A stretch of DNA of 57,718 nt from the NCBI GenBank assembly GCA_964593155.1, contig CAZQHE010000007.1, positions 1-57,718 of the forward strand. Reading direction: 5' to 3'. The translations under genes and the position numbers were made by a program. This stretch comes from an uncultured bacterium. Its GTDB lineage: Bacteria > Krumholzibacteriota > Krumholzibacteriia > JAJRXK01. The notes beneath the pieces are model-generated. The model had not been told where the DNA came from, did not search any database, and worked only from the letters and a program-made list of their open reading frames with translations. Positions 10,258 to 56,400 of the stretch are shown in pieces. Position 1 is the stretch's first letter, and each line of letters starts with the position of its first letter.

Positions 10258-10311
10258 CCAGTCCGTCTCCGTCGTTCCGCCTCGGGTGCGGAACCGCGTG
10301 GAGCCCGGGAA

Positions 10312-17965: not shown

Positions 17966-19390
17966 TCAGTTCGGGTTCCGCAGGTGTCCGAGAATGGCTT
18001 CGTAGTCCGAGCGCACCTCTCCGTCGTGCTGGAGCAGTTCCCGGATCTTCTGCCAGGCATGGTGGACGGTGGTGTGATCGCGTCCACCGAAGCGGCCTCC
18101 GATCTGGTTCAGGGACGCCCGTGTGTGCTCGCGGCAGATGAACATGGCCATCTGCCGCGCGTAGGCCACCTGCTTGGTGCGGACCTTCGAACGCAACAGG
18201 TCGAGGGACAGTTGGAAGAAGTCGGCCGTGGCCCGGGTGATGTCGGCCATGGTGAAGTCGGTCTGTGGCCGGCTGCGGTGCAGGAAAGCCTTGAGGACCT
18301 CCTGCGCCATGTCGACGTTGATCTCGCTGCCGGTCAGGCTGGCGAAGGCGAGCAGCCGCACCAGCGCGCCCTCGAGCTCGCGGATGTTGCTCTGGATGCT
18401 CTCGGCGATCAGGACGATCACGTCGTGGGGGATCAGCACGTCCTCGCGTTCGACCTTCTTGGTGAGGATCGCTACGCGTTCCTCGAAGTTCGGCGACTGG
18501 ATGTCGGTGATCAGGCCCCACTCGAAGCGGCTGCGCAGGCGTTCCTCGAGCGCGCTGATGTCGCGCGGTGGTCGGTCGCTCGTGACCACGATCTGCTTGT
18601 TCGCGTCGTAGAGCGCATTGAAGGTGTGGAAGAACTCCTGCTGGGTCGTCTCCTTGCCGGCGAGGAACTGGATGTCGTCGATCAGGAGCAGGTCCACGGT
18701 CCGGTAGCGGTTCTTGAACTCGATGTTCTTGCCGCCCCGGATCGACTGGATCAGCTCGTTCATGAAGTTCTCGGCGGAGACGTAGTGGACGATGGCGTGC
18801 GAATCGCTCTCGAGGACACGATTGCCGATCGCCTGCATCAGATGGGTCTTGCCCAGCCCGACGCCGCCGTACAGGAACAGCGGGTTGTAGGCGTGGGCGA
18901 GCTGGTCGGCGACGGCCATGCAGGCGGCCGCGGCGAGATGGTTGTTCTCGCCGACGACGAAGCTCTGGAAGGTGTAACGGGGGTTCAGGCCCGCATCGCG
19001 CGGCCGGAGACGCGCCACGGGGGTGGATGGGATCGGAGCCTGGGAGCCGGTGTTCACCGACGGACGCTCGAACGCGGTGGTCGACACGGGTTCCTCGTCC
19101 ACGATCACGTCGACCTGGACGGCGGTTCCGGTGACTTCCCGCGCCACGCGTCGGAGTAGCTCGAGATGGTGCTCGGTGAGCCAGTCGACGAAGAACTGGT
19201 TCGGCCCCTGCAGCTGGAGCACTTCGTTCTCCAGGGCCAGGAAACGGGTCTGGGCGAACCAGGTCTTGTACGTCTGCTCGTTGACCTCCTGGCGGACCCT
19301 GGAGAGGATCTGCTCCCAGAGGACCATCCCATCGTTGTCCGGAGTTCCGGTTGCCGCGTCGAGATCACGCGGTGGCAGAGATGCGGTCAC
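17966..19390 (-). CDS. dnaA: Chromosomal replication initiator DnaA
   Basis: YTFQSFVVG, YNPLFLYGGVGLGKTHL, LLIDDIQ, EFFHTFN, FGGRDHTTV. GGAGGAG RBS before GTG 19390. Confidence 0.98.
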   Translation of the reverse strand: MTASLPPRDLDAATGTPDNDGMVLWEQILSRVRQEVNEQTYKTWFAQTRFLALENEVLQLQGPNQFFVDWLTEHHLELLRRVAREVTGTAVQVDVIVDEEPVSTTAFERPSVNTGSQAPIPSTPVARLRPRDAGLNPRYTFQSFVVGENNHLAAAACMAVADQLAHAYNPLFLYGGVGLGKTHLMQAIGNRVLESDSHAIVHYVSAENFMNELIQSIRGGKNIEFKNRYRTVDLLLIDDIQFLAGKETTQQEFFHTFNALYDANKQIVVTSDRPPRDISALEERLRSRFEWGLITDIQSPNFEERVAILTKKVEREDVLIPHDVIVLIAESIQSNIRELEGALVRLLAFASLTGSEINVDMAQEVLKAFLHRSRPQTDFTMADITRATADFFQLSLDLLRSKVRTKQVAYARQMAMFICREHTRASLNQIGGRFGGRDHTTVHHAWQKIRELLQHDGEVRSDYEAILGHLRNPN

Positions 19391-19441
19391 CGGTTTGCTC
19401 CTCCGATGGATGGGAGGGTGAAAGGCGGACGGATCAACAAC

Positions 19442-19580
19442 TTATCCACCGGTGTCGGGCTTCTGGATGTGGATGTCTGGCGGTAGGTTGTCAGAAGATT
19501 CGGCCATATGGCCGAAATAGTTTTCCACAGGCCGGTAGGTTGTGGAAGAAATCCACCAGGGCGAACGTGGGTTGTCCACC
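19442..19580. promoter_or_regulatory. Cluster of DnaA boxes upstream of dnaA
   Basis: TTATCCACC 19442, TTTTCCACA 19521, TGTGGAAGA 19541, TTGTCCACC 19572, TGTGGATGT near 19469; each 1-2 mismatches from TTATCCACA. Confidence 0.8.
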
Positions 19581-19591
19581 CGGGGCGCGCG

Positions 19592-19620
19592 AACCTAGCA
19601 CTTCGGCCCGGGCCCGGCAA
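19592..19620 (-). promoter_or_regulatory. Sigma70-type promoter of dnaA
   Basis: Minus strand TTGCCG-17 nt-TAGGTT with extended TG. The DnaA boxes fall in its leader. Confidence 0.6.
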
Positions 19621-19778
19621 GCGGCAGCGATGCGTTGTTCTTCATCCCATCTTGAACCTGTTGGTGTGTCGGGGTTTGCAGACCCGGGGATTTCGCGCCG
19701 CCACCGGGCTCGATCACGGTCGGCTCGGCGCCGGCCCCTGGTGCGGAGCCGGACCCGCCGACCAGGGGCTCCACCACC

Positions 19779-19807
19779 TTGACGAAAAGGGACGGCGCCC
19801 CTAGTGT
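19779..19807 (+). promoter_or_regulatory. Sigma70-type promoter of the rpmH operon
   Basis: TTGACG-17 nt-TAGTGT. Confidence 0.65.
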
Positions 19808-19885
19808 TTTGCGGCTGATCCGGCGGCGACGACCGCCCGTTTCACCCGGAGATCGCGCAGACGCGCACAGCGACGAGGTCGGACC

Positions 19886-20020
19886 GTGAAGAGGACCTTC
19901 CAGCCCAGCAATCTCAAGCGCAAGCGCGACCACGGTTTCCGCAAGCGGAAGTCGACGAAGGCCGGGCGCGCCATCCTGAAGCGGCGCCGCGCGCGGGGTC
20001 GCAAGAAGCTGAGCGCCTGA
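19886..20020 (+). CDS. rpmH: 50S ribosomal protein L34 (44 aa; missing from the ORF track)
   Basis: Hand-translated: [44 protein letters not shown]. Confidence 0.97.
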
Positions 20021-20086
20021 CGAGACGGGATCCGGCGTTCGCCCACGGTCGTCCGCGGAGGATCGTCGTCGAGCGCGGGAGTCCGG

Positions 20087-20464
20087 TTGAAGGGGACCAT
20101 CAAGTCGAGGCGCGAGTTCGACGCGGTGTACGCGCACGGCCGGCGCGCCCATGGTCCGCATGTCGTCCTGTTCCTGCTTCCCCGAGAGAAGGCCCGTGAG
20201 GTCCTCGGCGTCCGCTTCGTCGACGAGACCCGATTCGGGGTGGTGGCCAGTCGTCGGGTCGGCAACGCCGTGGCCCGGAACCGGGCGAAGCGAGTGCTCC
20301 GCGCCGCATTGCGCGACGTGAACGACCTCTTTCCCGCCTCGAGCCGTGTCGTGCTGGTCGCGCGGAGGAGTCTGGTACGAGACGGCGAACGGTCGCCGGA
20401 GATCGCCACCGAACTCCGGGGGCTGCTCGAACGATGCGATCTCCCCGAGGGTGATTCCCGATGA
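20087..20464 (+). CDS. rnpA: Ribonuclease P protein component
   Basis: RFGVVASRRVGNAVARNRAKR (RNR motif); follows rpmH. Confidence 0.93.
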   Translation: MKGTIKSRREFDAVYAHGRRAHGPHVVLFLLPREKAREVLGVRFVDETRFGVVASRRVGNAVARNRAKRVLRAALRDVNDLFPASSRVVLVARRSLVRDGERSPEIATELRGLLERCDLPEGDSR

Positions 20465-31266: not shown

Positions 31267-32286
31267 TCAGGGGGTTTCCCACTCGAAGCCGAGGTCCTCG
31301 ACCATCTGCTCGTCCAGGTCCGGTGCCTGTCCGGGCTCGGTGAGGTAGTCGGCCAGGAACATCGCGTTGGCCGCGTACAGGGCCATGGGTTGCATGTGTC
31401 GCAGATGGACCTCGCGACCGGCCGACACGCGGATCTCCTTGGCGGGGTTCACGAAGCGGTACATGCAGAGCACCTTGAGGCAGTAGCGCGGGTCGAGCCT
31501 CTCGAGCGGCTGCTCGGCCAGTGGCGTCCCCTCGATCGCGATCAGGAAGTTCACGGGGATCGAGTCGACGTCGAGGTCGCGCAGGGCGTAGGCGCTCTCG
31601 ACCACCTGGTCGCGCGTCTCGCCCATGCCGATGATCACGCCGCTGCACGGAGAGATCCCCGCCTTCTTGCTCGACTCCACGGTGGCCAGACGATCGGCGT
31701 AGGAGTGCGTCGAACAGATGTCCTCGTAGTGGGTCTCGGCCGTGTTCAGGTTGTGGTTGTACCGATCGGCGCCGGCGGCGGCCAGGCGTTCGGCCTGTCC
31801 GTCCTCCAGGATGCCCAGACACGCGCACAGCTTCATGTCGGGGTGCCGCTGACGGATCTCCTGGATCGCACCGGCCACGTGGTCGACCTCGCGATCACTC
31901 GGCCCCTTGGCGCTGATCACGATGCAACACGTTCCCGCGTGCATCTTCGCCGCGTGGTCGGCCTTCTCGACGATCTGCTCCTGCGACATCAGCCGGTACT
32001 GATGGATCTCGGCCGTCGAGTCCTTGCTCTGCGAGCAGTAGGTGCAGTCCTCCGGGCACAGGCCGCTCTTGGCGTTCACCAGGTAGTTCAGCTTGACCTT
32101 GTTGCCGTAGTGGTGGTGGCGGATGCGATACGCCGCGGCCAACAGGTCGAGCAGCTCGACGTCGGGGGCGTCGAGGATCGACCGGGCCTCGTCCGGTTCG
32201 ATCGTGTGGCCCGCGAGCACGCGGTCGGCCAGGGCGGCCCACTTCGAGGTCGTCGGCGCGGCGGCCGCGGAGGTCGGAGGGTTCAT
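31267..32286 (-). CDS. bioB: Biotin synthase
   Basis: NAKSGLCPEDCTYCSQS (CxxxCxxC), YNHNLNT, CSGVIIGMGE, SIPVNFL. ATGA overlap with bioD. Confidence 0.97.
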   Translation of the reverse strand: MNPPTSAAAAPTTSKWAALADRVLAGHTIEPDEARSILDAPDVELLDLLAAAYRIRHHHYGNKVKLNYLVNAKSGLCPEDCTYCSQSKDSTAEIHQYRLMSQEQIVEKADHAAKMHAGTCCIVISAKGPSDREVDHVAGAIQEIRQRHPDMKLCACLGILEDGQAERLAAAGADRYNHNLNTAETHYEDICSTHSYADRLATVESSKKAGISPCSGVIIGMGETRDQVVESAYALRDLDVDSIPVNFLIAIEGTPLAEQPLERLDPRYCLKVLCMYRFVNPAKEIRVSAGREVHLRHMQPMALYAANAMFLADYLTEPGQAPDLDEQMVEDLGFEWETP

Positions 32287-33029
32287 ACGGTGTCTCCTTG
32301 CACCATCGACAGGTCGTGGATGCGATCGAGATCGATCGACTCGCGGCAGGCCCGTGCCATGACGTCGACGTCGACCAGACCTTCGATCCGGTCGAGCGTC
32401 CCGAGCACGGGGACTGCGCACATCTCCTCGATCATGGCCGCGTTGTCGTCGACCGACGGATCGTCGGCCGCAGGGTCCCGCCCGTTCAGGACCACACCGA
32501 TCACCGGTGTCGCACGCTCGCGCGCGTAGCGCACGGTGAGGAAGGTGTGGTTGAGGGTTCCCAGGTGGGCACGGGCCACGATCAGCAGGGGGAGTCCGAG
32601 CAGTGTGGCCAGATCCGTGTAATCGAACAAGTGATCATCGTGTCCGAATTCGGCGATGGGCACCGAGAGGCCTCCGGCCCCCTCCACCACCACCACGTCG
32701 TGGCGGGCGGCAATGCGGGTGAAGGCCTCGGCGATGCGCTCGGGCTCGATCACGCGCCCCTCGCGGCGGGCGCCGACCAGCGGGGCGACCGGATCGACGA
32801 AGGTGTAGGGAACCACGGCTCCCAGGGCATCCATGGTCCGCGAGGCCAGGGCCAGCGTGCGCGCGTCGGCCGGCCAGGGACCGGCGACCCGGGGATCGTG
32901 TCCGGTCTCGGCGGGCTTCATCACGCCGACCTCGATGCCCGCGTCGCGCCAGGCGCGGGCGATGCCCGCGGCGACGAAGGTCTTGCCCACGCCGGTGTCG
33001 GTGCCGGTGACCAGCAGGCCGCCGCTCAC
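32283..33029 (-). CDS. bioD: Dethiobiotin synthetase
   Basis: LVTGTDTGVGKT, MKPAETG, VEGAGGL, LGTLNH. GTGA overlap with bioA. Confidence 0.96.
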   Translation of the reverse strand: MSGGLLVTGTDTGVGKTFVAAGIARAWRDAGIEVGVMKPAETGHDPRVAGPWPADARTLALASRTMDALGAVVPYTFVDPVAPLVGARREGRVIEPERIAEAFTRIAARHDVVVVEGAGGLSVPIAEFGHDDHLFDYTDLATLLGLPLLIVARAHLGTLNHTFLTVRYARERATPVIGVVLNGRDPAADDPSVDDNAAMIEEMCAVPVLGTLDRIEGLVDVDVMARACRESIDLDRIHDLSMVQGDTV

Positions 33030-34429
33030 GCGCGCCCCCGGGCCTCGCGGGCCACGCGTTCGGCGATCTGCGGCGTGACGTGCTCGAAGGCCCGAACCAG
33101 CAGGTCGAGCATCGCGTCGAGCTCCTCGGGCGTGCTCGACGGCGGCGGCATGAAGATCACCACGTTTCCGATCGGGCGGACGATCAATCCGAGCTCCCGT
33201 GCGTGGTCGGTGACGGCGTAGCCCGCGCGCCAGTCCGACGGCAGGGGCCGTGGGTCTTCGCGGTCGGTCACGAGTTCGATGCCGACCATCAGTCCGCGCC
33301 CGCGCACGTCGCCCACACAGGGCAGGTCGCGCAGCGCGGCCAGCTGTGACCAAACGCGATCGATCTTCGGCGGCAGCGACTCCATCACCGCCGGCATCTT
33401 CTCGAGACTGGCCAGGGCCACGGCGCAACCGAGCTGGTTGCCGGTGAAGCTGTGGCCGTGGTACAGCGCGCGTCGCCGCTCGCCGCGGAAGGCATCGTAC
33501 ACGCGGTCGGTCGCCATCGTGGCGGCCACCGGCAGATAACCCCCGGTGAGGCCCTTGCCCAGACACATCAGGTCGGGTGTGACGCCCTCGGCGTCGCAGG
33601 CGAACATGCGGCCTGTCTTGCCGAAGCCGGTCGCCACCTCGTCGACGATCATCAGCACGTCGTGGCGATCGCACAGCGATCGCAGGTCGCGCAGGAAACC
33701 TTCTGGTGCCGGCCGGACCCCGCCCGCTCCCTCGACCGGTTCGATGATCACCGCGGCGATGCGATCACCGTCGCCCTCGAGCAGCGCGGTAAGTTCGTCG
33801 AGCGTCGCGCGCCGGCACTCCTCGGGGTTCGTCGCGCCGCTCGGGTGACCGAACCAGTAGGGATACGCCACGCGCGGCTGTTCCGGCAGCATCGAAAGGA
33901 ACGGCCAGTGGAACACGGGATCGGGCGCCACCGACATCGCCCCGATCGTGTCGCCATGGTAGTTCTCGGTGAAGCCCACCACGTGGCGTTTCTCGGCGCG
34001 GTCCTGGTTGGCGAAGAACTGGATCGCCGCCTTGAGCGCGATCTCCACCGCCGTCGCCCCGCTGTCGGAGAAGAACACGCGCTCGAGTCCTTCGGGTGTG
34101 ACGTCCACCAGGCGCTTCGCGAGCACCGAGGCGGGAACGTTGCCCGCGCCGAGGAGCGTGGAGTGCGCGATCCGATCGATCTGCTCGCGGATCGACGCGT
34201 CGAGGTCGGGGTCGCGGTGGCCGTGCACGTTCAACCAGATCGAACTCGAGCCGTCCCAGTACCAGCGACCCTCGGTGTCCTGCAACCTCCGGCCCTCGCC
34301 CCGAACGATCACCGGCGGCGACGCCGCCACGTAGTCGTCCATGGGCGTGAAGGGATGCCACACGTGTTCGAGGTCGAAGCGCCGCACGTCTTCGGGTTCG
34401 AAGCCGAAGAAGGGATCGTAAGTGGTCAT
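33026..34429 (-). CDS. bioA: KAPA/DAPA aminotransferase
   Basis: VWHPFT, WLNVHGH, IAHSTLLG, YHGDT, DEVATGFG, LGKGLTGGY, HGHSFTGN. ATGA overlap with the upstream gene. Confidence 0.95.
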   Translation of the reverse strand: MTTYDPFFGFEPEDVRRFDLEHVWHPFTPMDDYVAASPPVIVRGEGRRLQDTEGRWYWDGSSSIWLNVHGHRDPDLDASIREQIDRIAHSTLLGAGNVPASVLAKRLVDVTPEGLERVFFSDSGATAVEIALKAAIQFFANQDRAEKRHVVGFTENYHGDTIGAMSVAPDPVFHWPFLSMLPEQPRVAYPYWFGHPSGATNPEECRRATLDELTALLEGDGDRIAAVIIEPVEGAGGVRPAPEGFLRDLRSLCDRHDVLMIVDEVATGFGKTGRMFACDAEGVTPDLMCLGKGLTGGYLPVAATMATDRVYDAFRGERRRALYHGHSFTGNQLGCAVALASLEKMPAVMESLPPKIDRVWSQLAALRDLPCVGDVRGRGLMVGIELVTDREDPRPLPSDWRAGYAVTDHARELGLIVRPIGNVVIFMPPPSSTPEELDAMLDLLVRAFEHVTPQIAERVAREARGRA

Positions 34430-35439
34430 GGGTGTCTCTCCTCGTCGGACCGACTCCACTCCACCACCGCGGCCGCCTCCACCAGACCGGCCCCCACGGC
34501 GCTGAGCAGCAGGGTCCCCGGACACGCGGCGAACCGGCGGTGCAACGACAGTGCGGTCGGGATGCTCGCGGCCGAGCTGTTCCCCCAGGTCGGCAGGATG
34601 TCGACGCGGCGCGCGGGGTCGATGCCCAGCTCGTTGCCGGCGCGGTCGAGGATCCGGCGGTTGGCCTGGTGGGGGATCCAGGCGTCGAGGTCGTCCGCCG
34701 TGCGTCCGGCGTCGTCGAGGGCCGCCCGTGAGGAGCGCACCATACCGCGGACGGCCTCCTGGAACACCACCGAACCCCGCTCGATGCGCAGGAAGTGCAG
34801 GCCCTCCTTCAGGGCGTCGGCGTCGAAGGGACGGACGCTGCCGCCGGCGACCACGCGGATCGCGTCGGCGTGGCGGGCGTCGGACCCCACGCGCAGGGAC
34901 CGGATGCGCGCGGCGGGGCCTGCCGTACGCTCGGGAGCGAGGACCACGGCACCCGCGCCGTCGGCGAACACGGCCCGCGACCCCGCGTCGTGGGGATCGA
35001 GCCGGCGGCTCAACACGTTCGAGGCGACCACCAGGACGGGCGTGCCGAAGGCCGTGACCCACCCGGCCCCGACGCCGAGGCCGTACAGGAATCCCGCGCA
35101 CGCCCCGGCCAGGTCGAAGCCGCCCGCGCCGGGCGCGCCGATGCCGGCGGCGACCCGTGGAGCCGTCGGTGGGAGCAGGTGGTCGGGCGTGCTCGTGGCC
35201 AGGACGACCAGGCCGATCGAGCCGGCACCGAGGGCCGCGTCCTCGAGCGCCGCGGCGCCGGCCTCGATGGCCAGGTCCGAACACGCCTGCCCCGGCGAGC
35301 AGATCCGGCGCGCGTGGATACCCGTGCGCCGTTCGATCCATCCCGCCTCGAGGCCGAGTTCCGCCTCGAGTTCGGCGTTGTCCAGCGACACACCCGGACT
35401 TGCGTGGCCGGTCCCGACGATGAATGCTTCGTGAGCCAT
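34426..35439 (-). CDS. bioZ: FabH-like condensing enzyme, BioZ-type (putative pimeloyl-ACP precursor synthase)
   Basis: Cys-His-Asn triad (DLAGACAGF, PHQAN, GNSSAAS); LGLEAGWIERRTGI, ATSTPDHLLPP and NVLSRR resemble BioZ as recalled; first gene of the coupled bio operon. Confidence 0.75.
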   Translation of the reverse strand: MAHEAFIVGTGHASPGVSLDNAELEAELGLEAGWIERRTGIHARRICSPGQACSDLAIEAGAAALEDAALGAGSIGLVVLATSTPDHLLPPTAPRVAAGIGAPGAGGFDLAGACAGFLYGLGVGAGWVTAFGTPVLVVASNVLSRRLDPHDAGSRAVFADGAGAVVLAPERTAGPAARIRSLRVGSDARHADAIRVVAGGSVRPFDADALKEGLHFLRIERGSVVFQEAVRGMVRSSRAALDDAGRTADDLDAWIPHQANRRILDRAGNELGIDPARRVDILPTWGNSSAASIPTALSLHRRFAACPGTLLLSAVGAGLVEAAAVVEWSRSDEERHP

Positions 35440-35476
35440 GCCGAAGGCGGAACCCCGTAGGAAGGGCGAAGGGACG

Positions 35477-36607
35477 ATGGACCGACGGACCTGGGACGAA
35501 CGGCTGCGCGCCGAGGAACGGCAGGGTCTGCGTCGCCGTCTGCCCGACCCGCGGTCCGGGTCCGTCGACCTCGACTTCGCGAGCAACGACTACCTGGGGC
35601 TGCGCCGGGATCCGCGGGTGGTCGCGGCGGCCCACGAGGCCCTCGACCGCGACGGCGTCGGTTCGGGAGCATCGCGTCTGCTCGGTGGAAACGCCACCGC
35701 GCACGTCGAACTCGAAGCCGATCTCGCGCGGTTGAAGGGAACCGACGCGGCGCTGGTCTTCTCGTCCGGATACGCGGCGAATCTAGGCCTGCTGACCGCG
35801 ATCAGCGAACCGGAAGACGTGATCTACTGCGACCGCCTCGACCACGCCAGCCTGGTCGACGGTGCCCGGCTGGCCCGGGCCGAGCTGCGATTCTACCGCC
35901 ACGGAGATCCCGAACACCTCGGCCGGCAGCTCGCCCGACGCCGCGCCGGCGGGCGAGCGTGGGTGGTGACCGACGGCGTGTTCAGCATGGACGGCGTGCT
36001 CGCGCCCCTGCCCGCGATCGCCGAGGTCGCCGGCGAGGCCGGCGCCACGCTGATCGTGGACGACGCGCATGCGACGGGCGTCGTGGGTCCCGAAGGAGCC
36101 GGAACCCTGCGGCACTTCGACCTCGCTCCCGAGGGCATCGTCCAGATGGGCACGTTGTCGAAGGCTCTGGGGTGCCAGGGCGGCTTCGTGGCCGGCCCGG
36201 CGGATCTCGTCGCCTGGCTCGTACAGCGGGCGCGGTCGTTCGTGTACAGCACCGGCCTCGCGCTGCCCATCGCCGCCGCGGCCCGGCGGGCGATCGAACT
36301 CGCCCGCGACGACGACCTGCGCGCACGCCGGCAGCGGTCCTTCGACCGCCTGCACCAGGGTCTGGTGGGTCAGGGATGGACGGTGTGGGGCGAGAGTCCG
36401 GCCCCCATGCTGGCCGTGATCGTCGAGAGTGCCGAGACGGCGGTGTCGCTGTCGGCCGCGTTGGCCGAGCGCGGGGTGGTCGTGCCCGCGATCCGCCCAC
36501 CGACGGTGCCCCGCGACGCCTGCCGTCTGCGGCTGGCCCCCACGGCGGCCATGGACGACGCGGCGATCGATCGCGCGCTCGGGGTGTTCGCGTCGGTGCG
36601 GGGCTGA
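35477..36607 (+). CDS. bioF: 8-amino-7-oxononanoate synthase
   Basis: FASNDYLGL, GSGASRL, FSSGYAAN, DRLDHAS, DGVFSMDG, DDAHATG, GTLSKALG, IRPPTVP. Confidence 0.94.
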   Translation: MDRRTWDERLRAEERQGLRRRLPDPRSGSVDLDFASNDYLGLRRDPRVVAAAHEALDRDGVGSGASRLLGGNATAHVELEADLARLKGTDAALVFSSGYAANLGLLTAISEPEDVIYCDRLDHASLVDGARLARAELRFYRHGDPEHLGRQLARRRAGGRAWVVTDGVFSMDGVLAPLPAIAEVAGEAGATLIVDDAHATGVVGPEGAGTLRHFDLAPEGIVQMGTLSKALGCQGGFVAGPADLVAWLVQRARSFVYSTGLALPIAAAARRAIELARDDDLRARRQRSFDRLHQGLVGQGWTVWGESPAPMLAVIVESAETAVSLSAALAERGVVVPAIRPPTVPRDACRLRLAPTAAMDDAAIDRALGVFASVRG

Positions 36608-36611
36608 GGGC

Positions 36612-36872
36612 TCAGCGCCGGCCGATCTCCTTGCAGCGGTGCACCACGCTCTTCGGCGGGTCCAGCAGCCAGTCGCGGCCGACCGGCTCCATCGTGTCCT
36701 CCGAGGCACGCGCCCAGGCGGCGACCATGCGCCGCGACTCGCGGTGACGCAGCAGGTGCTCGTTGACCTCGAAGACGACGGCCTCGATCAGGTCGCCGTC
36801 GGACCAGGCCACGAGCATCTCGTCGCCGATCTCCTTGTCGCGCGTGTAGCCCCACTTCTTCGGTGCTGCCAT
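36612..36872 (-). CDS. Hypothetical 86-aa soluble protein
   Basis: GGAGAGGA RBS and typical codon usage; directly follows the sigma-like gene. Confidence 0.6.
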   Translation of the reverse strand: MAAPKKWGYTRDKEIGDEMLVAWSDGDLIEAVVFEVNEHLLRHRESRRMVAAWARASEDTMEPVGRDWLLDPPKSVVHRCKEIGRR

Positions 36873-36890: not shown

Positions 36891-37649
36891 TCAGCGGTGC
36901 TGCAGCGCGGGACCGGTGCTGCGGTCCTCGTCGGTCTCCATGGTGGTCTCGCCGTACAGGCGGTGCACGACCACCCGCAGCAGGGCGTGCCGCTGCTCGT
37001 GCGGCATCTCCCAGGCGTCGCCCACCGCGCGGATCGGCTGGAGGTAGCCGAGCAGCCGGTCGAGCAGCTTGCCCACCCGCTCCGGCGTGCCCACGCGGAA
37101 GATCTGGTCGAGCTCGCGCAGGGTCAGGCCCTGCTCGTAGCGGAAGCCCAGCATGAGGCGGTCGCGGCGGTGCAGGACCCCGATCACGCGCTTCATGGCC
37201 ACGAAGAAGCGCTCGCCCTCCTTCTCGAGCAGTTCGGCGTACTTCGGCTCGAGCACCGGAACGGGCTGGTCGGGATCGTCGAGAGCGATGGCCGGGTCGA
37301 CCGGCGGGTACTCGCGCGCGCGGCGTGCCTCGCTCATGACCGGCGTCTTCTGGAGGATCCGGACCAGCTCGCTCGCCCACTTGCCGTAGCCCACGTAGTC
37401 GCGGATCACGGCGAAGTCGCCACGGGCAATGGCCTCGAAGGTCTGGACCGTGGCCTCTTCGGCCAGGGCGTCGCGGTTGCCCAGGTGGTCGGCCATGCGC
37501 AGGGCCATGGAGTGGACGATCGGCGCCGAGGCGTCGACCAGCTCGTCCCAGTGGGCCGGGGGGTCTTCCTTGGCGCGCTGCACCAGTCGCTGGTAGTCGA
37601 CGTTGCGCAGGTGGGGATGACGGAGGATCAACAGGTCGAGGTGTCGCAT
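36891..37649 (-). CDS. Atypical ECF sigma70-like protein
   Basis: Region 2-like WDELVDASAPIVHSMA...AEEATVQTF; region 4-like RRDRLMLGFRYEQGLTLREL. Confidence 0.6.
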   Translation of the reverse strand: MRHLDLLILRHPHLRNVDYQRLVQRAKEDPPAHWDELVDASAPIVHSMALRMADHLGNRDALAEEATVQTFEAIARGDFAVIRDYVGYGKWASELVRILQKTPVMSEARRAREYPPVDPAIALDDPDQPVPVLEPKYAELLEKEGERFFVAMKRVIGVLHRRDRLMLGFRYEQGLTLRELDQIFRVGTPERVGKLLDRLLGYLQPIRAVGDAWEMPHEQRHALLRVVVHRLYGETTMETDEDRSTGPALQHR

Positions 37650-37766: not shown

Positions 37767-38015
37767 ATGACGAAACACCCGGACGACCACGAAGATCACG
37801 AAGATCAGGAGTCCGACGGCCAGGGCCGGCGACGGATCCGTCTGCGCCCGCGCTCCGGCTCCGAGCACCGTTTCGGCTTCGCCCGTCGCTGGGAGGCGCG
37901 CCGCCGCTCCCGGAGTTCGCGGTCGATCTGGGCGCTGGTCGGCCTCGACATCGGGGCACTGCTGCTGATCTACCTGGTCGCCCGCGAGGTCGTCCGCCGC
38001 CTCGGCGGCGACTGA
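37767..38015 (+). CDS. Hypothetical small protein with C-terminal TM
   Basis: GGGAGG upstream; charged N-terminus, then IWALVGLDIGALLLIYLVA. Confidence 0.5.
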   Translation: MTKHPDDHEDHEDQESDGQGRRRIRLRPRSGSEHRFGFARRWEARRRSRSSRSIWALVGLDIGALLLIYLVAREVVRRLGGD

Positions 38016-38064: not shown

Positions 38065-38138
38065 TGGCCCGTCGTCTAAGGGTAGGACTCTGGGTTTTGG
38101 TCCCAGCTGTGGGGGTTCGAATCCTCCCGGGCCAGCCA
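38065..38138 (+). tRNA. tRNA-Gln (anticodon TTG), CCA encoded
   Basis: Acceptor stem TGGCCCG/CGGGCCA, anticodon arm CTGGG-TTTTGGT-CCCAG, T-arm GGTTCGAATCC. Extended -10 TGcTAGCTT at 38044-38052. Confidence 0.96.
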
Positions 38139-49962: not shown

Positions 49963-50000
49963 CTTAACTCCGCCCTCACACACGGTCACTAGACTGTCGC
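49963..50000 (+). promoter_or_regulatory. Pho-box-like direct-repeat array
   Basis: CGGTCAC-TAGA-CTGTCGC (11-bp period), with further TAAC (49965) and TCAC (49976) half-site cores at 11/10-bp spacing. Confidence 0.4.
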
Positions 50001-50154
50001 CCGTCCGATACTCGACACATCCGGACGCGCTCGAAAAAACCACCTTCCACTCCGAGCACTCCCGGTCCGGTCGGTTCCGACCCGGGCCGGAACGGATCGT
50101 TCGGTTCGCCGACGATTTCGCCTCTCTCTGCTCCTCTTGGAGGTACCCTACACC

Positions 50155-53100
50155 ATGATTCGTCAGCTCAAGGGCATTGGTCTCTTGGCTCTCGGACTGG
50201 TCGTGCTCGCCGGCCCCGCGTTCGCGCAGGGCATCATCTACGACTCGAACATCCTGTTCGGGAACAACGGTGGCGGCACGCAGTTCGACACCGACGTCGG
50301 TTCCGGTGGCGACACCGAAGCCTTCGTCACGAGCAACTTCTCGCGAAACCTGATCGGCGTCGATCCCCTGCTGGAGTCCACGTACAACTCCATCGAGGGT
50401 CCCTGGCGCCCCACCTCTGGCAGCCCCGCGGTCTTCGGCAACACCGGCGCGGTGCAGCTGCTCAAGGCCTCCGACCTCGACCCCTTCTTCGACGACGTGC
50501 CCTACGCGGGCGCGCTCAGCCCGGATCCGGACGAGGACTGGACCCGCGGCGGCTGGCTCTACACCAACACCGATGGCGGCCTCGGCCGTGACGACATCGA
50601 CTTCGGCCTGCCCGTCGTCACCGTCAGCGGCAACGTTCCGCCGGGCACCACCTGGACCGCCGACAACCGCTACGAACTCGTCGGCCGGGTGACCGTGCCC
50701 GACGGCGTGACCCTGGTCATCGAGCCGGGCGTCGTCGTGACCGGCTCGCCGGGCACCAACGCCTACCTGGCCGTCGACCGCGGTGGTCGGGTGCAGGCCG
50801 TGGGTACGGCGCAGGAGCCGATCATCTTCACCTCCGGCGCTCCGCTGGGCTCGCAGGCCCCGGGCGACTGGTCGGGTGTGCTGATCAACGGCCGCGCCGT
50901 TGCCAACTGCGACATCGACCCGTCGGCCTCGGTGGACTGCCGCGCCACCAACGATCCGGCGGGGCCCTTCAGCTGTGAGTCCGAGGGCAACGGTGGCCTC
51001 TTCGGTGGCACCGACGACGCCGACGACAGCGGTATCCTGCGCTACGTGCGCTCGGAGTACGCCGGTCTCGAGATCAGCCCGAACAACGAGCTGAACGCCT
51101 TCACGTTCAACGCCGTCGGCACGGGCACGACGCTGGAGTTCCTGCAGACCTTCCGCAGCACCGACGACCACTTCGAGTGGTTCGGTGGCGCGGTGCGCAG
51201 CCGTTGGTTCGTGGCCCTCGAGGGCGACGACGACGGTCTGGACTGGCAGCTCGGCTACCGCGGCCGTCACCAGTACGCCATCGTGACCGCCCTGAGCGAT
51301 CAGAACGAGGGCGGCGCGAACCCGACCGGGGCCAACCCCGAGAAGGGGATGGAGTGCGACAACAACGAGGACGACAACGAGTGCCCGAGCGAGTCCGACG
51401 GCATCGTGTCCAACGTCACGCTGATCGGCGGCAGCACCCAGCGCGGTGACAGCAGCACCGGCACCAACTTCCGCCGCGGCACCAACGGTGGTGTGGTCAA
51501 CAGCATCATCGTGGATTTCGACGGGGTTGGCTTCGACATGGACGGGGCGGCGACCTTCGCCAACGGCGTCCGGTCGACCATTCCGGCCGACTTCCAGCCG
51601 GTCGACCCGACCGCCGGAGGCATCACCTTCGACGGCAACTTCCTGTGGAACAACAACGGTGGCGGCACGCAGTACGACACCGACGCGGGCAGCGGTGGCA
51701 ACACCGAGGACTTCGTCACCAGCAACTTCGTGAACAACAGCATCCAGGATCCCCGTCTCGATCCGGACTACACGGTGATCGACGACGGCGGCAACTGGAA
51801 CCTGCAGTCCGACAGCCCCGCGCTGTTCAAGAACGGTGCGTCGTTGCTCCGCGTGAGCGACATCGATCCGTTCTTCGAGGATCGTCAGCACGCCGGTGCC
51901 CTGAGCGACGGCGCGGCGGCCTGGACGCAGGGGTGGATCTACGCCGACCTCGACGGTGGTGCGAGCCGCACCGACATCGACCCGGGTCTGCCGGTCGTGA
52001 CCGTCAGCGGCAACGTCGCGCCGGGAACCACCTGGACGGCCGCCAACCGCTACGAGCTGGTCGGCCGTGTGACGGTGGCCGACGGCGTCACCCTGACGAT
52101 CGAGCCGGGTGTCGTGGTGACCGGTTCGCCGGGCACCAACGCCTACCTGGCCGTCGACCGCGGTGGCCGCATCGAGGCCGAGGGCACCGCCGACCAGCCG
52201 ATCATCTTCACCTCCGGCGCTCCGCTGGGCTCGCAGGCCCCGGGCGACTGGTCGGGTGTGCTGATCAACGGCCGCGCCGTTGCCAACTGCGACATCGACC
52301 CGTCGGCCTCGGTGGACTGCCGCGCCACCAACGATCCGGCGGGGCCCTTCAGCTGTGAGTCCGAGGGCAACGGTGGCCTCTTCGGTGGCACCGACGACGC
52401 CGACGACAGCGGTATCCTGCGCTACGTGCGCTCGGAGTACGCCGGTCTCGAGATCAGCCCGAACAACGAGCTGAACGCCTTCACGTTCAACGCCGTCGGC
52501 ACGGGCACGACGCTGGAGTTCCTGCAGACCTTCCGCAGCACCGACGACCACTTCGAGTGGTTCGGTGGTGCGGTCAAGAGCCGCTACTTCGTCGGCCTCG
52601 AGGGCGACGACGACGGTCTGGACTGGCAGCTCGGCTACCGTGGCCGCCACCAGTTCGCCGTGATCACCGCCCTCGGTCTCGACGGTGCCAACCCCGAGAA
52701 GGGGATGGAGTGCGACAACAACGAGGACGACAACGAGTGCCCGAGCGAGTCGAACGGTATCGTGGCCAACGTCACCCTGATCGGTGGCAACGAGGGTCGC
52801 GGTACCAGCAGCACGGGCATCAACTTCCGGCGCGGGACCAACGGCGGCGTGTTCAACAGCGTCATCGTGGACTTCGCCGGGGTCGCCTTCGACATGGACA
52901 GCGCGGCCACCTTCGCCAACGGCGTCGGTCCCCGTCCGGCTCTGCAGTCGGTGGGCACCGTCACCACGGGCATCGAGGGTGGTATCTCGAACTCCGCGTT
53001 CAACGTGAGCTTCGCGCCGAATCCGGTCCAGGCCGGCAACGGCATGTTCCGCTTCACGCTGCCGAAGTCGAGTGACGTGCAGGTCCGCGTGTTCAACGCG

Positions 53101-53256
53101 CGTGGTCGCCTGGTCGACACGGTCTTCTCGGGCCGTCTCGACGCGGGTACCCGCGAGCTGAGCTGGACCCCCCGCAACCAGGCCAACGGCGTGTACTTCT
53201 ACCAGGTGCAGGCCGGCGGTCAGGTCGCTTCGGGCAAGCTCATGCTCGTGAACTAG
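50155..53256 (+). CDS. Large secreted acidic protein with two tandem beta-helix-like units and a C-terminal T9SS/FlgD-like domain
   Basis: Signal peptide (AFA-Q); repeated TTWTA.NRYELVGRV, PGDWSGVLING, DDSGILRYVRSEYAG, DDHFEWFGG; tail FAPNP...VFNARGRLV...GVYFYQV. Confidence 0.85.
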   Translation: MIRQLKGIGLLALGLVVLAGPAFAQGIIYDSNILFGNNGGGTQFDTDVGSGGDTEAFVTSNFSRNLIGVDPLLESTYNSIEGPWRPTSGSPAVFGNTGAVQLLKASDLDPFFDDVPYAGALSPDPDEDWTRGGWLYTNTDGGLGRDDIDFGLPVVTVSGNVPPGTTWTADNRYELVGRVTVPDGVTLVIEPGVVVTGSPGTNAYLAVDRGGRVQAVGTAQEPIIFTSGAPLGSQAPGDWSGVLINGRAVANCDIDPSASVDCRATNDPAGPFSCESEGNGGLFGGTDDADDSGILRYVRSEYAGLEISPNNELNAFTFNAVGTGTTLEFLQTFRSTDDHFEWFGGAVRSRWFVALEGDDDGLDWQLGYRGRHQYAIVTALSDQNEGGANPTGANPEKGMECDNNEDDNECPSESDGIVSNVTLIGGSTQRGDSSTGTNFRRGTNGGVVNSIIVDFDGVGFDMDGAATFANGVRSTIPADFQPVDPTAGGITFDGNFLWNNNGGGTQYDTDAGSGGNTEDFVTSNFVNNSIQDPRLDPDYTVIDDGGNWNLQSDSPALFKNGASLLRVSDIDPFFEDRQHAGALSDGAAAWTQGWIYADLDGGASRTDIDPGLPVVTVSGNVAPGTTWTAANRYELVGRVTVADGVTLTIEPGVVVTGSPGTNAYLAVDRGGRIEAEGTADQPIIFTSGAPLGSQAPGDWSGVLINGRAVANCDIDPSASVDCRATNDPAGPFSCESEGNGGLFGGTDDADDSGILRYVRSEYAGLEISPNNELNAFTFNAVGTGTTLEFLQTFRSTDDHFEWFGGAVKSRYFVGLEGDDDGLDWQLGYRGRHQFAVITALGLDGANPEKGMECDNNEDDNECPSESNGIVANVTLIGGNEGRGTSSTGINFRRGTNGGVFNSVIVDFAGVAFDMDSAATFANGVGPRPALQSVGTVTTGIEGGISNSAFNVSFAPNPVQAGNGMFRFTLPKSSDVQVRVFNARGRLVDTVFSGRLDAGTRELSWTPRNQANGVYFYQVQAGGQVASGKLMLVN
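50816..51188 (+). repeat. Copy 1 of a 373-bp exact direct repeat
   Basis: Line-by-line identical to 52196-52568 (offset 1380 bp). Confidence 0.95.
52196..52568 (+). repeat. Copy 2 of a 373-bp exact direct repeat
   Basis: Line-by-line identical to 50816-51188. Confidence 0.95.
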
Positions 53257-53262
53257 TTCGAT

Positions 53263-53290
53263 CGGGTTCGGGGCTGCGACCCCGGACTCG
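53263..53290 (+). terminator. Stem-loop between the surface-protein gene and the TBDR gene
   Basis: CGGGTTCGGGG-6 nt-CCCCGGACTCG with no U-tract. Confidence 0.5.
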
Positions 53291-53450
53291 GCGGTACGCA
53301 ACGCCGCGCCGCATCATGACCGAACGCACCACGCGCGGCGTGCGGCCGAACCCGGGGTGGGGCAGTCGGAAGACTGTCCCACCTCCTGGCGTCCAGACCC
53401 TGTGTTCCGGTGACCGGAATCCGGTCGCCCCACCTCGAAGAGAGGCCCCC

Positions 53451-56400
53451 ATGCGTGGTGTTCTTCGTCTCCCGAGCTGCGCGGCGATCACGACGATCGT
53501 CTTCGGGATCGTCCTCCTGGCCGGCACCGCCGGCGCCTCGTCCCAGCACACCCCCGGGATGAGCCTGACCGCCGAGATCCTCGCCGAGAACGCCCCGGCC
53601 CTGCAGGGGTCCGGTGCCACGACGGCGGCGGAGAGCGCATCCGACACCAGCGCGGCCGACAGTACGGCCGCCGGCACGCCCTCGCCCGTTCCGTCCAACG
53701 CCCCCGGAACCATCACCGGCCACGTGCGCGACGCAGAGTCGGGCCGGGGCCTGCCCTACACCAACATCATCCTCGATCGCGTTCGCGAGAGCGGCGATCC
53801 CGAGCAGACCGGCGGCAGCATCGCCCTGACCGGCGGGCAGTACTTCGCCCGCGTGGCGCCCGGTACCTACGAGGTGTCGTTCCTGTACCTGGGCTACGAG
53901 ACCTTCACGGCCGAGGACGTCGTCGTCGAGCCCGGCTCGACCGTGACGCTCGACGTCGAGATGACCGTGAAGCCGATCGAGTTCACGGCCATGACCGTCC
54001 AGGCGCAGAAGATCACCAACACCGCGGTGGCGCAGCTGCAGGAGAAGAAGCGCGCGACCGCGGTGCAGGAGGCGATCACCGCCGAGGAGATCAGCAAGAG
54101 CACCGACTCCGACGCCGCCGAGGCCCTCGAGCGCGTCACCGGCCTGAGCGTGGTGGGCGGCAAGTTCGTCTTCGTGCGCGGGCTCGGCGATCGGTACAGC
54201 TCGACCACGCTGAACGGCGCGCCCCTGAGTTCTCCCGAGCCCAGCCGAAACACCGTGCCGCTCGACATCTTTCCGGCGGCCATGCTCGACAACATCGTCG
54301 TGCAGAAGGCCTTCACGCCCGACATGGACGGGAACTTCGGCGGCGGCAACATCGACGTGCGCACCCGCCGCGGCGTGGACGAGCGCGTGTTCCAGCAGAA
54401 GATCTCCTACGGCTTCGACCAGAGCGTGATCGACAACGACTTCCTCACCTACGAGGGTGGCGCGACCGACCTGCTGGCGCGCGACGACGGCACGCGCGGA
54501 TTCCCCCGCCTGCTCGAGGCCTACGAGAACAAGAGCTTCACCGCGGCGAACGCCACCGAGGCCGAGCAGTTCGCCGCCACCTTCTCGTTCCCGAACGTCT
54601 GGACCCCGAAGCGCGTCGAGGGCCCGCCGAACTTCGGCTACTCCGGCCTGTTCAGTGATTCCTTCGAGATCGAGGGCCGCCGTGGCAGCGTGCTGGCGGC
54701 CGCGTCGTACAGCCACGGCGCCAAGACCGAGGACTACGAGCAGTACGTGATCCGTACCGACGAGATCGCCCCGCCCAAGCAGCAGGCCACCACCCTGCGC
54801 TCCGAGCGCTCCGTTCTGCTGGGCGTGACCGGCGCCGTCGTCTTCCAGCCGACCACCGGCACCAACCTGCAGTACAACGTGCTGTACACCCGCAGTGGCG
54901 AGGATCAGGCCTACACCTCGGTCGGCCGGACCGACAGCGAGGAGACCCAGTACCTCAGCCACACCCTGAAGTTCGTCGAGCGCGACCTGCTGACCCACGT
55001 CCTGCAGGGCCGCCACACCGTTGGTCCGCACGGCTCCGAACTGCACTGGATGGGCTCGACGTCGAGCGCGACCCGGAACGAGCCGGACAACCGCTACAGT
55101 CGATTCGCCTGGGCCAACAGCGACCGCCGCGTGAGCGACAGCGGCGAACAGTACAACGTGGGAGTGTGGACCCAGCCGAACATCGCCAGCGGCTTCCAGC
55201 GCCTGTTCGGGGAAACCGACGAGAACGCCCAGGCCTTCCGCGTGAACTGGGACCTGGTCCTGCCCGAGAAGCCGTGGGTGAAGCGTCGCCTGAAGCTCGG
55301 TTTCGGCTACCGCCAGCGCGAGCGCGACGAGGGCTACCGCCGCTTCCTCATCCGCAAGCCCTCGCCATCGGCCTACGTCGAGGCGGGCGGCGCAGGTCGG
55401 GCCGAGGACATCTTCGAGCTGTCGAGCTTCGCCGATCCCGTCGACGCCCTGCGCCTGTCGAAGACCGAGGAGTTGACCAACCCCTACGACGCGTACGACG
55501 CCCAGCAGGAGATCACCGCGCTCTACGCGATGCTCGACCTCGACTTCTTCGAGACCCTGCGCATGACTGGCGGTGCCCGCTTCGAGAGCAACCAGCAGGT
55601 CGCGAGTTCCCTGAGCCTGAACGGTGCCGAGGCCGGCCTGCCCAGTATCGAGGCCGACGCCAGCGCCGAGGACTGGCTGCCCGCGCTGAACCTGACGTGG
55701 CGCACCACCGACCGCATGCAGTTCCGCGGCGGCTACAGCCGCACTCTCAACCGTCCGCAGCTCCGCGAGCTCGCCGGCCTGCGCATCTTCGACTTCGACG
55801 CCGACGAGGTCGTGTCGGGCAATCCGTTCCTGCGGGCCGCCACCGTCGACGCCTTCGACTTCCGCTGGGAGATCTTCCCTGCGCCCCGCAGCTACGCCGC
55901 CCTGAGCTTCTTCGACAAGACCATCGACAACGCGATCCTCACCAACTTCACCAACCAGGCCGGTGGCGGCCTCGTGCTCTACCCCGCCAACGGTGAGCAG
56001 GACGGATCGCTGCGTGGCTGGGAGGTCGAGTGGCGCGGCCCGATCGACGACGTGCTGTGGGCCTCGCGCCAGGCCGCCGTGTCCGGGGCGTGGCTCGCCA
56101 CCCGCCCGTTCTGGCTGATCGGTCAGATCCCCGGCCTGTCCGCCCTCGGCGACTGGACCCCCGACCACCGCCTGACCGGCGCCGTCGAGGTGCCCGCTCT
56201 GCGCAACTGGGGTTTCACCTTCAACTACTCGGGGATCTCGTCGTCCATCGACCTCGATCCCGTGCGCGCCGAGAACGAGCTCTTCAACGTGGTCGATCCC
56301 GACGGCAACCCTCTGCCCAGCCCCGACGGCACCGAGGTCCAGGAGAACCGCCTGACCGGCCAGGCCGACTCGGCCTTCAATCTGGGCCTGTTCTACGGCA

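Follow-up and report, generated by a model that had tools for sequence, protein, structure and literature searches.

A probable BioZ-type biotin biosynthesis cluster of rearranged gene order in a Krumholzibacteria-like bacterium

Contig CAZQHE010000007.1 of the uncultured-bacterium assembly GCA_964593155.1, analysed here over its whole length of 57.7 kb (57,718 nucleotides, hereafter the window), carries a five-gene biotin cluster at positions 31267-36607, in which the minus strand carries a bioZ-like gene, bioA, bioD and bioB, with bioF divergent from them (Table 1). The bioZ-like gene encodes a protein of the superfamily of beta-ketoacyl-ACP synthases III (KAS III; ACP, acyl carrier protein), which includes FabH. 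We consider it likely, with a probability of roughly 85%, that the five genes make up a full set for biotin biosynthesis of the BioZ type, with a Krumholzibacteria-like bacterium as host, the chemistry, the use of host fatty acid synthesis (Fab) enzymes, the source of glutaryl-coenzyme A (glutaryl-CoA) and the regulation being taken over from characterised homologues. What the window adds is a new lineage, belonging to a new phylum, and a rearranged operon for the known BioZ-type pathway, and not a new pathway.

Table 1. Genes and intergenic spacer of the biotin cluster (positions are those of the window)
Feature	Position	Strand	Description
bioZ-like	34426..35439	-	337 aa, ATG start; heads the operon of four genes; predicted 3-oxopimeloyl-ACP synthase (KAS III / FabH superfamily)
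bioA	33026..34429	-	467 aa; predicted aminotransferase converting 8-amino-7-oxononanoate (KAPA) to 7,8-diaminononanoate (DAPA); long type related to PDB 3dod/6wnn
bioD	32283..33029	-	248 aa, GTG start; predicted dethiobiotin synthase
bioB	31267..32286	-	339 aa; predicted radical-SAM biotin synthase; last gene of the operon
bioF	35477..36607	+	376 aa; predicted 8-amino-7-oxononanoate synthase; divergent from bioZ
spacer between bioZ and bioF start codons	35440..35476		37 bp; starts placed by comparison with relative L001

The four minus-strand genes are joined by 4-bp overlaps of start and stop codons, read directly from the sequence: ATGA between bioZ and bioA (ACACCCATGACC / CCCATGACC), GTGA between bioA and bioD (GCGCGCGTGAGC / CGCGTGAGC) and ATGA between bioD and bioB (CACCGTATGAAC / CGTATGAAC). 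These junctions bear out a preliminary description of the locus, which had listed a four-gene bioZ-bioA-bioD-bioB operon with ATGA/GTGA overlaps and a divergent bioF, and the overlaps imply that the four genes form one transcript and are translationally coupled. The true start of bioF is the ATG at 35477 (MDRRTWDERL), which is kept in the relative L001, and not the upstream ATG at 35438; the resulting spacer measures 37 bp in the window, 36 bp in L001, an 86%-identical relative, and about 110 bp in a 59%-identical relative. Searches of the bioF-bioZ spacer revealed neither a sigma-70-like promoter nor a terminator, and no inverted repeat that was convincing. Because these 37 bp hold no recognisable promoter or operator-like repeat, no control of the BirA, BioR or BioQ type can be assigned, and it must be that the bioF and bioZ promoters lie inside the neighbouring coding regions, that the transcripts are leaderless, or that the promoters are of another type.

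Pfam and NCBIfam scans of the other large open reading frames (ORFs) of the window detected no BioC, BioH, BioW, BioI, CaiB-type (family III) CoA transferase or second KAS III, in agreement with the earlier statement that bioC, bioH, bioW and bioI are missing from the cluster. A partial methyltransferase at 1-468 was considered as a candidate BioC and rejected, as it has no match to the BioC model and lies 31 kb from the cluster.

Six independent tests agree in assigning the FabH-like gene to the BioZ family, namely profiles, solved structures, an identity gap in a tblastn search of plasmid records, diagnostic residues, phylogeny and a comparison of hidden Markov models (HMMs), and the gene context is consistent with them. 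Judging from these sequence comparisons, we regard the gene as a BioZ-family member and not as a housekeeping fabH, as the preliminary description had proposed. The protein contains the Pfam domains PF08545 (ACP_syn_III) and PF08541 (ACP_syn_III_C), and its top NCBIfam model is NF004623, at 334 bits versus 261 and 233 bits for generic FabH models. Rhizobial BioZ proteins encoded in bioBFDAZ operons pass NF004623 at 539-558 bits, the bio-cluster protein of Marinithermus hydrothermalis scores 372 bits on it versus 296 on the FabH model, and for E. coli FabH the order is reversed (250 bits on NF004623 versus 476-503 on the FabH models). The three top PDB matches of the window protein are all Agrobacterium tumefaciens BioZ, at 253-258 bits (258 for 9j6e/6kue), and the best FabH reaches 155; the motifs that the preliminary description had quoted are present and align to the A. 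tumefaciens protein. In the tblastn search against plasmid records, rhizobial BioZ proteins stand at 45-50% identity and all other KAS III at 42% or less, with a clean gap between them.

The tree was built by neighbour-joining with 100 bootstraps from 158 BioZ-like sequences and 60 housekeeping FabHs as outgroup; the FabHs and the alphaproteobacterial BioZ sequences came from a contig pattern scan whose patterns were not specific for BioZ, and no Krumholzibacteria genome was among the matches listed. The BioZ-like sequences were split from the FabHs at 100% bootstrap, the window protein fell inside a 40-member clade with 100% support, and the alphaproteobacterial BioZ proteins formed a clade of their own (89%), apart from that of the window. 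When a BioZ HMM was built without the window clade, it gave the window protein 411 bits versus 300 on a FabH HMM, that is, 111 bits better. As to context, the window gene belongs to a biotin ring-assembly cluster, where it overlaps bioA by 4 bp, and not to a fab/pls cluster. All the alphaproteobacterial BioZ loci fetched carry adjacent bioB, bioF and bioA, and all but one also a detectable bioD. BioZ-like genes lie within bio clusters in Actinomycetota, Gemmata, Bacteroidetes QS_8_68_15, Marinithermus and Rhodothermus profundi, the sequences compared in what follows being those of M. hydrothermalis and of R. profundi, which stands in for its tested congener R. marinus. Among 62 lower-scoring FabH loci there was none with a bio cluster adjoining the FabH gene, one of them (L028) having a bioF-like gene about 7 kb off.

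Residues are numbered here as in A. tumefaciens BioZ (AtBioZ) unless marked as those of the window, and the roles ascribed to them are taken from PMC8024396 and PMC12625853. In AtBioZ, S84, R147 and S287 contact the free carboxylate of the glutaryl group at the bottom of the tunnel (PMC8024396; PMC12625853), and the minimal specificity determinants are Ala317 and the BioZ-type beta8-alpha9 loop, together with Leu90, which replaces the Phe of FabH (PMC12625853). Alignment to AtBioZ shows that the window protein keeps the catalytic triad C115/H255/N285 (window C114, H257 and N287), the carboxylate contacts S84/R147/S287 (window S83, R146 and S289) and also L90, N142, L144, S286 and A317. The arginine of the LSRR motif, singled out in the preliminary description as a possible carboxylate-binding residue, proved to be the conserved Arg147 of the carboxylate region. 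Across 144 BioZ-like sequences S84, L90, N142 and R147 are invariant. The 60 housekeeping FabHs show another pattern: position 142 is Glu or Asp in every one of them (60/60; Asn in the window), position 147 is mostly hydrophobic, with Arg outside its four commonest residues (Arg in the window), and positions 84 and 90 are mostly V/I and F (Ser and Leu in the window). The beta8-alpha9 loop of the window protein has a BioZ-like length, 8 residues longer than that of E. coli FabH, and an AGGS..RPF motif, but the length of this loop fails to tell BioZ from the 60 environmental FabHs, and Ala317, although present in the window protein, is also found in 41 of them.

Several observations weigh against the assignment to BioZ. 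The window protein falls under the equivalog cutoff of NF004623 (334 versus 437 bits); the backbone of the BioZ tree has 30-51% support, and the placement of the window clade relative to validated BioZ proteins is weakly supported; W47, V265 and T290 of AtBioZ are replaced by Ile, Ala and Ser; and position 290 is Ser in 37 of the 40 members of the window clade. Mutagenesis of AtBioZ has shown that the T290S and W47A mutants are inactive and that V265A is weakened. As for the cutoff of 437 bits, it also lies above the scores of the bio-cluster proteins of Marinithermus (372), R. profundi (387), Gemmata (392) and an Actinomycetota metagenome-assembled genome (MAG; 366), and it is tuned to Alphaproteobacteria. 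As for the residues, W47, V265 and R153 characterise only the alphaproteobacterial clade; Marinithermus BioZ has Val, Ala and Pro at positions 47, 265 and 153 and keeps T290. W47, V265 and T290 are therefore not family-wide features, but T290S stands as what we would call the one real doubt about BioZ membership at the sequence level.

It could be supposed that the natural T290S change, together with the absence of W47, V265 and R153, marks a BioZ-family enzyme whose clade has shifted its primer handling and would take glutaryl-ACP in place of glutaryl-CoA, for instance, or some other dicarboxyl primer. The behaviour of the AtBioZ mutants fits this proposal, as do the Ala or Pro found in the window clade at the CoA-contacting position 153 (Ala in the window protein), the faster evolution of BioZ and BioF than of BioA, BioD and BioB in this lineage, and the report (PMC8024396) that AtBioZ accepts glutaryl-CoA or glutaryl-ACP. 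However, the residues of the glutaryl pocket and carboxylate contact (S84, L90, N142, L144, R147, S287 and A317) are all kept, and Marinithermus BioZ, which likewise lacks W47, V265 and R153, comes from a species, M. hydrothermalis, whose bioZ complements E. coli bioC and bioH deletions, as does that of Rhodothermus marinus (Hu and Cronan 2020, PMC7645780). Moreover, by chemical reasoning only a C5 dicarboxyl primer extended by one malonyl unit gives the C7 chain for BioF. We consider a shift of this kind unlikely, and retain a glutaryl-CoA-dependent BioZ as the preferred reading of the gene.

For the remaining four genes the matches are as follows, the Pfam scan being consistent for all five. 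On NCBIfam models at equivalog level, BioA passes TIGR00508 (474 bits, cutoff 405), BioD passes TIGR00347 (154 bits, cutoff 83) and BioB passes TIGR00433 (384 bits, cutoff 225); BioD has the Pfam domain AAA_26, and BioB has Radical_SAM and BATS and matches the PDB biotin synthases 8vdw and 1r30. The same 248-aa bioD gene call is carried by the relatives. BioF has TIGR00858 as its best model, at 388 bits and under the cutoff of 426, its best PDB matches are 8-amino-7-oxononanoate synthases, and it is 53-54% identical to the BioF proteins of the BioZ clusters of Marinithermus, R. profundi and Bacteroidetes QS_8_68_15. BioA matches PDB 6wnn/3dod at 443 bits, versus about 259 bits for E. coli BioA. 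These two entries are taken to be Bacillus subtilis BioA, and the Bacillus-like BioA of the preliminary description is borne out. The amino donor of B. subtilis BioA is given as L-lysine and not S-adenosylmethionine (SAM) in PMC11089781, which cites Van Arsdell 2005. If the window BioA likewise takes its amino group from lysine, this amino acid would enter the pathway at two points, as amino donor and as the origin of glutaryl-CoA.

Reasoning from characterised BioZ homologues (PMC7645780, PMC8024396, PMC12625853), we postulate that the window BioZ, a KAS III derived from FabH, would load the glutaryl group from glutaryl-CoA onto Cys114 and condense it decarboxylatively with malonyl-ACP to form 3-oxopimeloyl-ACP, which FabG, a dehydratase and an enoyl reductase of the host would convert to pimeloyl-ACP. 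BioF would then make KAPA from pimeloyl-ACP and L-alanine, BioA would aminate KAPA to DAPA, BioD would close the ureido ring to give dethiobiotin, and BioB would insert sulfur to yield biotin. The known chemistry of the BioZ pathway is left unchanged by the cluster of the window.

The contig comes from a Krumholzibacteria-like bacterium of the Fibrobacteres-Chlorobi-Bacteroidetes (FCB) group and is not alphaproteobacterial. The nearest homologue of its BioZ (86% identity) carries the NCBI label Candidatus Krumholzibacteria; for 21 kb, starting at parA and reaching across the bio cluster as far as atpD, the contigs of this relative show the same gene order as the window, with a nucleotide identity of 86%; and the matches to the window AtpD that bear a name come from Candidatus Krumholzibacteria (88%), Krumholzibacteriia, Gemmatimonas and Latescibacteria (77%), with no alphaproteobacterium among them. 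The homologue labels, the colinearity and the AtpD matches together establish a host outside the Alphaproteobacteria, as the preliminary description had concluded, and a type IX secretion system (T9SS) sorting domain and FlgD_ig domains in the window fit the FCB group.

Within this lineage the cluster appears to be long established. It was found with identical overlaps in four independent metagenome contigs (L001-L004), a recurrence indicating that the arrangement is not due to chance, and the order with bioF divergent from bioZ-bioA-bioD-bioB is kept in these four and in L094. Since a relative with a BioZ of only 59% identity also has this layout beside the atp operon, with the small unknown ORFs in between, long residence is to be preferred over recent assembly. 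The G+C content at third codon positions (GC3) is 0.86-0.92 in the bio genes versus 0.88-0.95 in neighbouring genes; codon composition and synteny give no sign of recent transfer and point to long residence in the lineage. In comparison with L001, a contig of the Krumholzibacteria MAG, bioZ has a ratio of nonsynonymous to synonymous substitution rates (dN/dS) of 0.16, and the values of the remaining four bio genes are 0.10-0.21, indicating purifying selection.

The degree of conservation is not uniform along the cluster. At the nucleotide level bioB is 96%, bioD 94% and bioA 92% identical to L001 (dS 0.15-0.28), so that no other part of the 21-kb colinear region is as well conserved as bioA-bioD-bioB, bioZ and bioF are both 83% identical (dS about 0.54), and the flanking genes range from 75 to 93%. 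The conservation of bioA-bioD-bioB reflects either unusually strong constraint or recombination of this tract between relatives in the recent past. Between bioF and the atp operon lie three ORFs with no Pfam or NCBIfam match, at 36612-36872 (minus strand, 86 aa), 36891-37649 (minus strand, 252 aa) and 37767-38015 (plus strand, 82 aa), which occur in the same order in L001-L004 and L094; the 86-aa ORF is convergent with bioF and ends 4 bp from its stop codon. The cluster is not intact in every member of the window clade: in L091 (P0033), with a BioZ of 59% identity, the bioZ-like gene is isolated and bioA-bioD follow 4 kb downstream, with a DUF6541 gene and a glycosyltransferase gene in between. 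Outside the clade, bioF of the Actinomycetota MAG (L088, 4829-6004) is split into ORFs of 299 and 88 aa by a frameshift or an assembly error, and in the Gemmata MAG (L090, 2087-4006) bioD and bioA are fused into a gene for a 639-aa protein.

These results bear on a second explanation, by which the locus would be a recently assembled mosaic of a bioZ from Alphaproteobacteria with Firmicutes-like bioA and bioB, encoding a new hybrid route; an undescribed hybrid assembled by horizontal transfer was indeed the interpretation of the preliminary description. Such an origin would account for the closer resemblance of BioZ (45-50% identity) than of the other four proteins (29-39%) to their alphaproteobacterial counterparts, for a BioA closest to the 3dod/6wnn type and for a gene order unlike that of every other BioZ cluster seen. 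Nevertheless, the nearest relatives of the window BioZ are non-alphaproteobacterial and the alphaproteobacterial clade is separate, the GC3 of the bio genes is indistinguishable from that of their neighbours, and the same arrangement stands beside the atp operon in the relative with a 59%-identical BioZ. In addition, because each of the five genes shares 47-60% identity with its counterparts in the Marinithermus, R. profundi and Actinomycetota clusters, which have the order bioB-bioF-bioZ-bioA-bioD, the set forms a coherent cluster type that already exists and has been described (PMC7645780), and not a new mosaic. Recent assembly is in our view very improbable, and of the preliminary interpretation the BioZ identity, the arginine, the type of BioA and the host stand, while the undescribed hybrid assembled by transfer does not.

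Least credible of all is that the gene is a housekeeping FabH primed with acetyl-CoA that merely sits in a bio operon, pimelate being supplied by a pathway encoded elsewhere, since the annotation of such genes in public MAGs as beta-ketoacyl-ACP synthase III, the passing of the generic FabH subfamily model NF006829 (261 bits, cutoff 249) and the lack of any other KAS III in the window are set against the 100% bootstrap split, the un-FabH-like residues N142, R147, S84 and L90, the 111-bit advantage of the BioZ HMM, the translational coupling to bioA and the finding that canonical fabH genes cluster with fab/pls genes and do not complement bio mutants (PMC7645780).

With the gene read as bioZ, the question arises of how widely this route is distributed. 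Homologues of the BioZ clade span at least seven phyla, and those with a name belong to Krumholzibacteria, Marinithermus (Deinococcota), Rhodothermus, a hypersaline Bacteroidetes MAG, Gemmata, another Planctomycetota MAG, Actinomycetota, Acidobacteria/Bryobacteraceae and a Chlorobi-like bacterium, and the five of them that were checked for context are all bio-linked. In recent papers BioZ is still given as confined to Alphaproteobacteria, or even as occurring "exclusively in Rhizobiaceae/Nitrobacteraceae" (PMC12704756), and an origin in Rhizobiales has been proposed (PMC8024396), a proposal on which the presence of bio-linked BioZ in several distant phyla bears directly. The breadth of BioZ is wider than recent papers state, and is under-appreciated, though not unknown; the view of BioZ as alphaproteobacterial, found also in the preliminary description, does not hold, the Marinithermus and R. 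marinus genes having been tested in 2020 (PMC7645780). The curated BioZ model NF004623 misses all non-alphaproteobacterial members, and public MAGs label these genes beta-ketoacyl-ACP synthase III, so that metabolic reconstructions would score their hosts as unable to make the pimelate moiety or as biotin auxotrophs. The natural variation at W47, V265 and T290 also provides a ready test set for the specificity model of PMC12625853.

A broader proposal, which we put forward tentatively and would not give even odds, is that the BioZ route is an old and widespread way to pimeloyl-ACP, present in at least seven phyla (Krumholzibacteriota, Deinococcota, Rhodothermota/Bacteroidota, Planctomycetota, Actinomycetota, Acidobacteriota and Chlorobi-like bacteria), and not an invention of Rhizobiales. 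The alphaproteobacterial enzymes would then be one derived and possibly acquired branch, and the Krumholzibacteria-type clade (40 sequences, with T290S, without W47, V265 and R153, and with an operon layout of its own) would make up a third subfamily, possibly departing from AtBioZ in details of primer handling.

The rest of the window contains a probable chromosomal origin region at 17966-20464, where two gene groups diverge from a gap of about 580 bp (19442-20020), dnaA-dnaN-recF-gyrB-gyrA to the left and rnpA-yidC-jag-rsmG-parA-parB to the right, the cumulative GC skew having its minimum at about 15-18 kb. Besides these two gene groups, Pfam and NCBIfam identified genes for an M23 peptidase, a bactofilin, a GNAT protein, a DUF2461 protein, a HIT protein, a pyridoxal phosphate (PLP)-dependent decarboxylase, a T9SS sorting-domain protein and a TonB-dependent receptor, while the F-type ATP synthase operon near the bio cluster was identified only by colinearity with the called genes of the relative. 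Hallmarks of the FCB group are a FlgD_ig-domain protein (8707-10311), a CarboxypepD_reg/TonB-dependent receptor (53076-56690) and a 1087-aa protein (49993-53256) in which a T9SS type A sorting tail is all that can be recognised. A tRNA-Gln gene at 38065-38138, called by both ARAGORN and Rfam, is 100% identical in the relative, and the Rfam scan of the window returned nothing but this one tRNA; a 96-nt tRNA-Ser called by ARAGORN at 51393-51488 (minus strand), inside the ORF of the 1087-aa protein and below the Rfam gathering threshold, is probably a false positive.

When the window is compared with known systems, the routes through BioC-BioH and BioI-BioW likewise end in a pimeloyl thioester, which is passed on to the same ring-assembly enzymes BioF, BioA, BioD and BioB, whereas here a single condensing enzyme would replace them, none of the four proteins having been detected in the scans of the window. 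E. coli FabH has the same fold, domains and Cys-His-Asn triad as the window BioZ, at 35% identity, but it has T, F, D, T, T and G at positions 84, 90, 142, 147, 286 and 317 and a shorter beta8-alpha9 loop, and its gene belongs to a plsX-fabH-fabD cluster. A. tumefaciens BioZ (PDB 6KUE, 9J6E and 9W96), the best PDB match, is about 50% identical over 320 residues and has in common with the window protein the triad, S84/R147/S287, L90, N142, L144, S286, A317, a similar beta8-alpha9 loop length and the AGGS..RPF motif. The two differ in that W47, V265, T290 and R153 are Ile, Ala, Ser and Ala in the window, in their separate clades, and in the operon order, which is bioB-bioF-bioD-bioA-bioZ in Alphaproteobacteria; BioF, BioA, BioD and BioB of the window are also more distant from their alphaproteobacterial counterparts than BioZ is.

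The closest known systems are the clusters of Marinithermus and R. profundi, which hold the same five genes, including the long BioA, share with the window the core order bioZ-bioA-bioD, and encode BioZ proteins that also lack W47, V265 and R153. Two types of BioZ cluster are thus seen, the alphaproteobacterial/Gemmata type (bioB-bioF-bioD-bioA-bioZ) and the Marinithermus/Rhodothermus/Actinomycetota type, and the window belongs to the latter; the combination of BioZ with a BioA of the 3dod/6wnn type is a property of this whole second type and not a local mosaic. In Marinithermus, R. profundi and the Actinomycetota MAG the genes follow the order birA-(bioY)-bioB-bioF-bioZ-bioA-bioD on one strand, whereas in the window bioF is inverted, bioB has moved to the 3' end and there is no adjacent birA or bioY. 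The Marinithermus and R. profundi enzymes keep T290, which is Ser in the window, and the host phylum differs; the rearranged gene order is particular to the lineage of the window.

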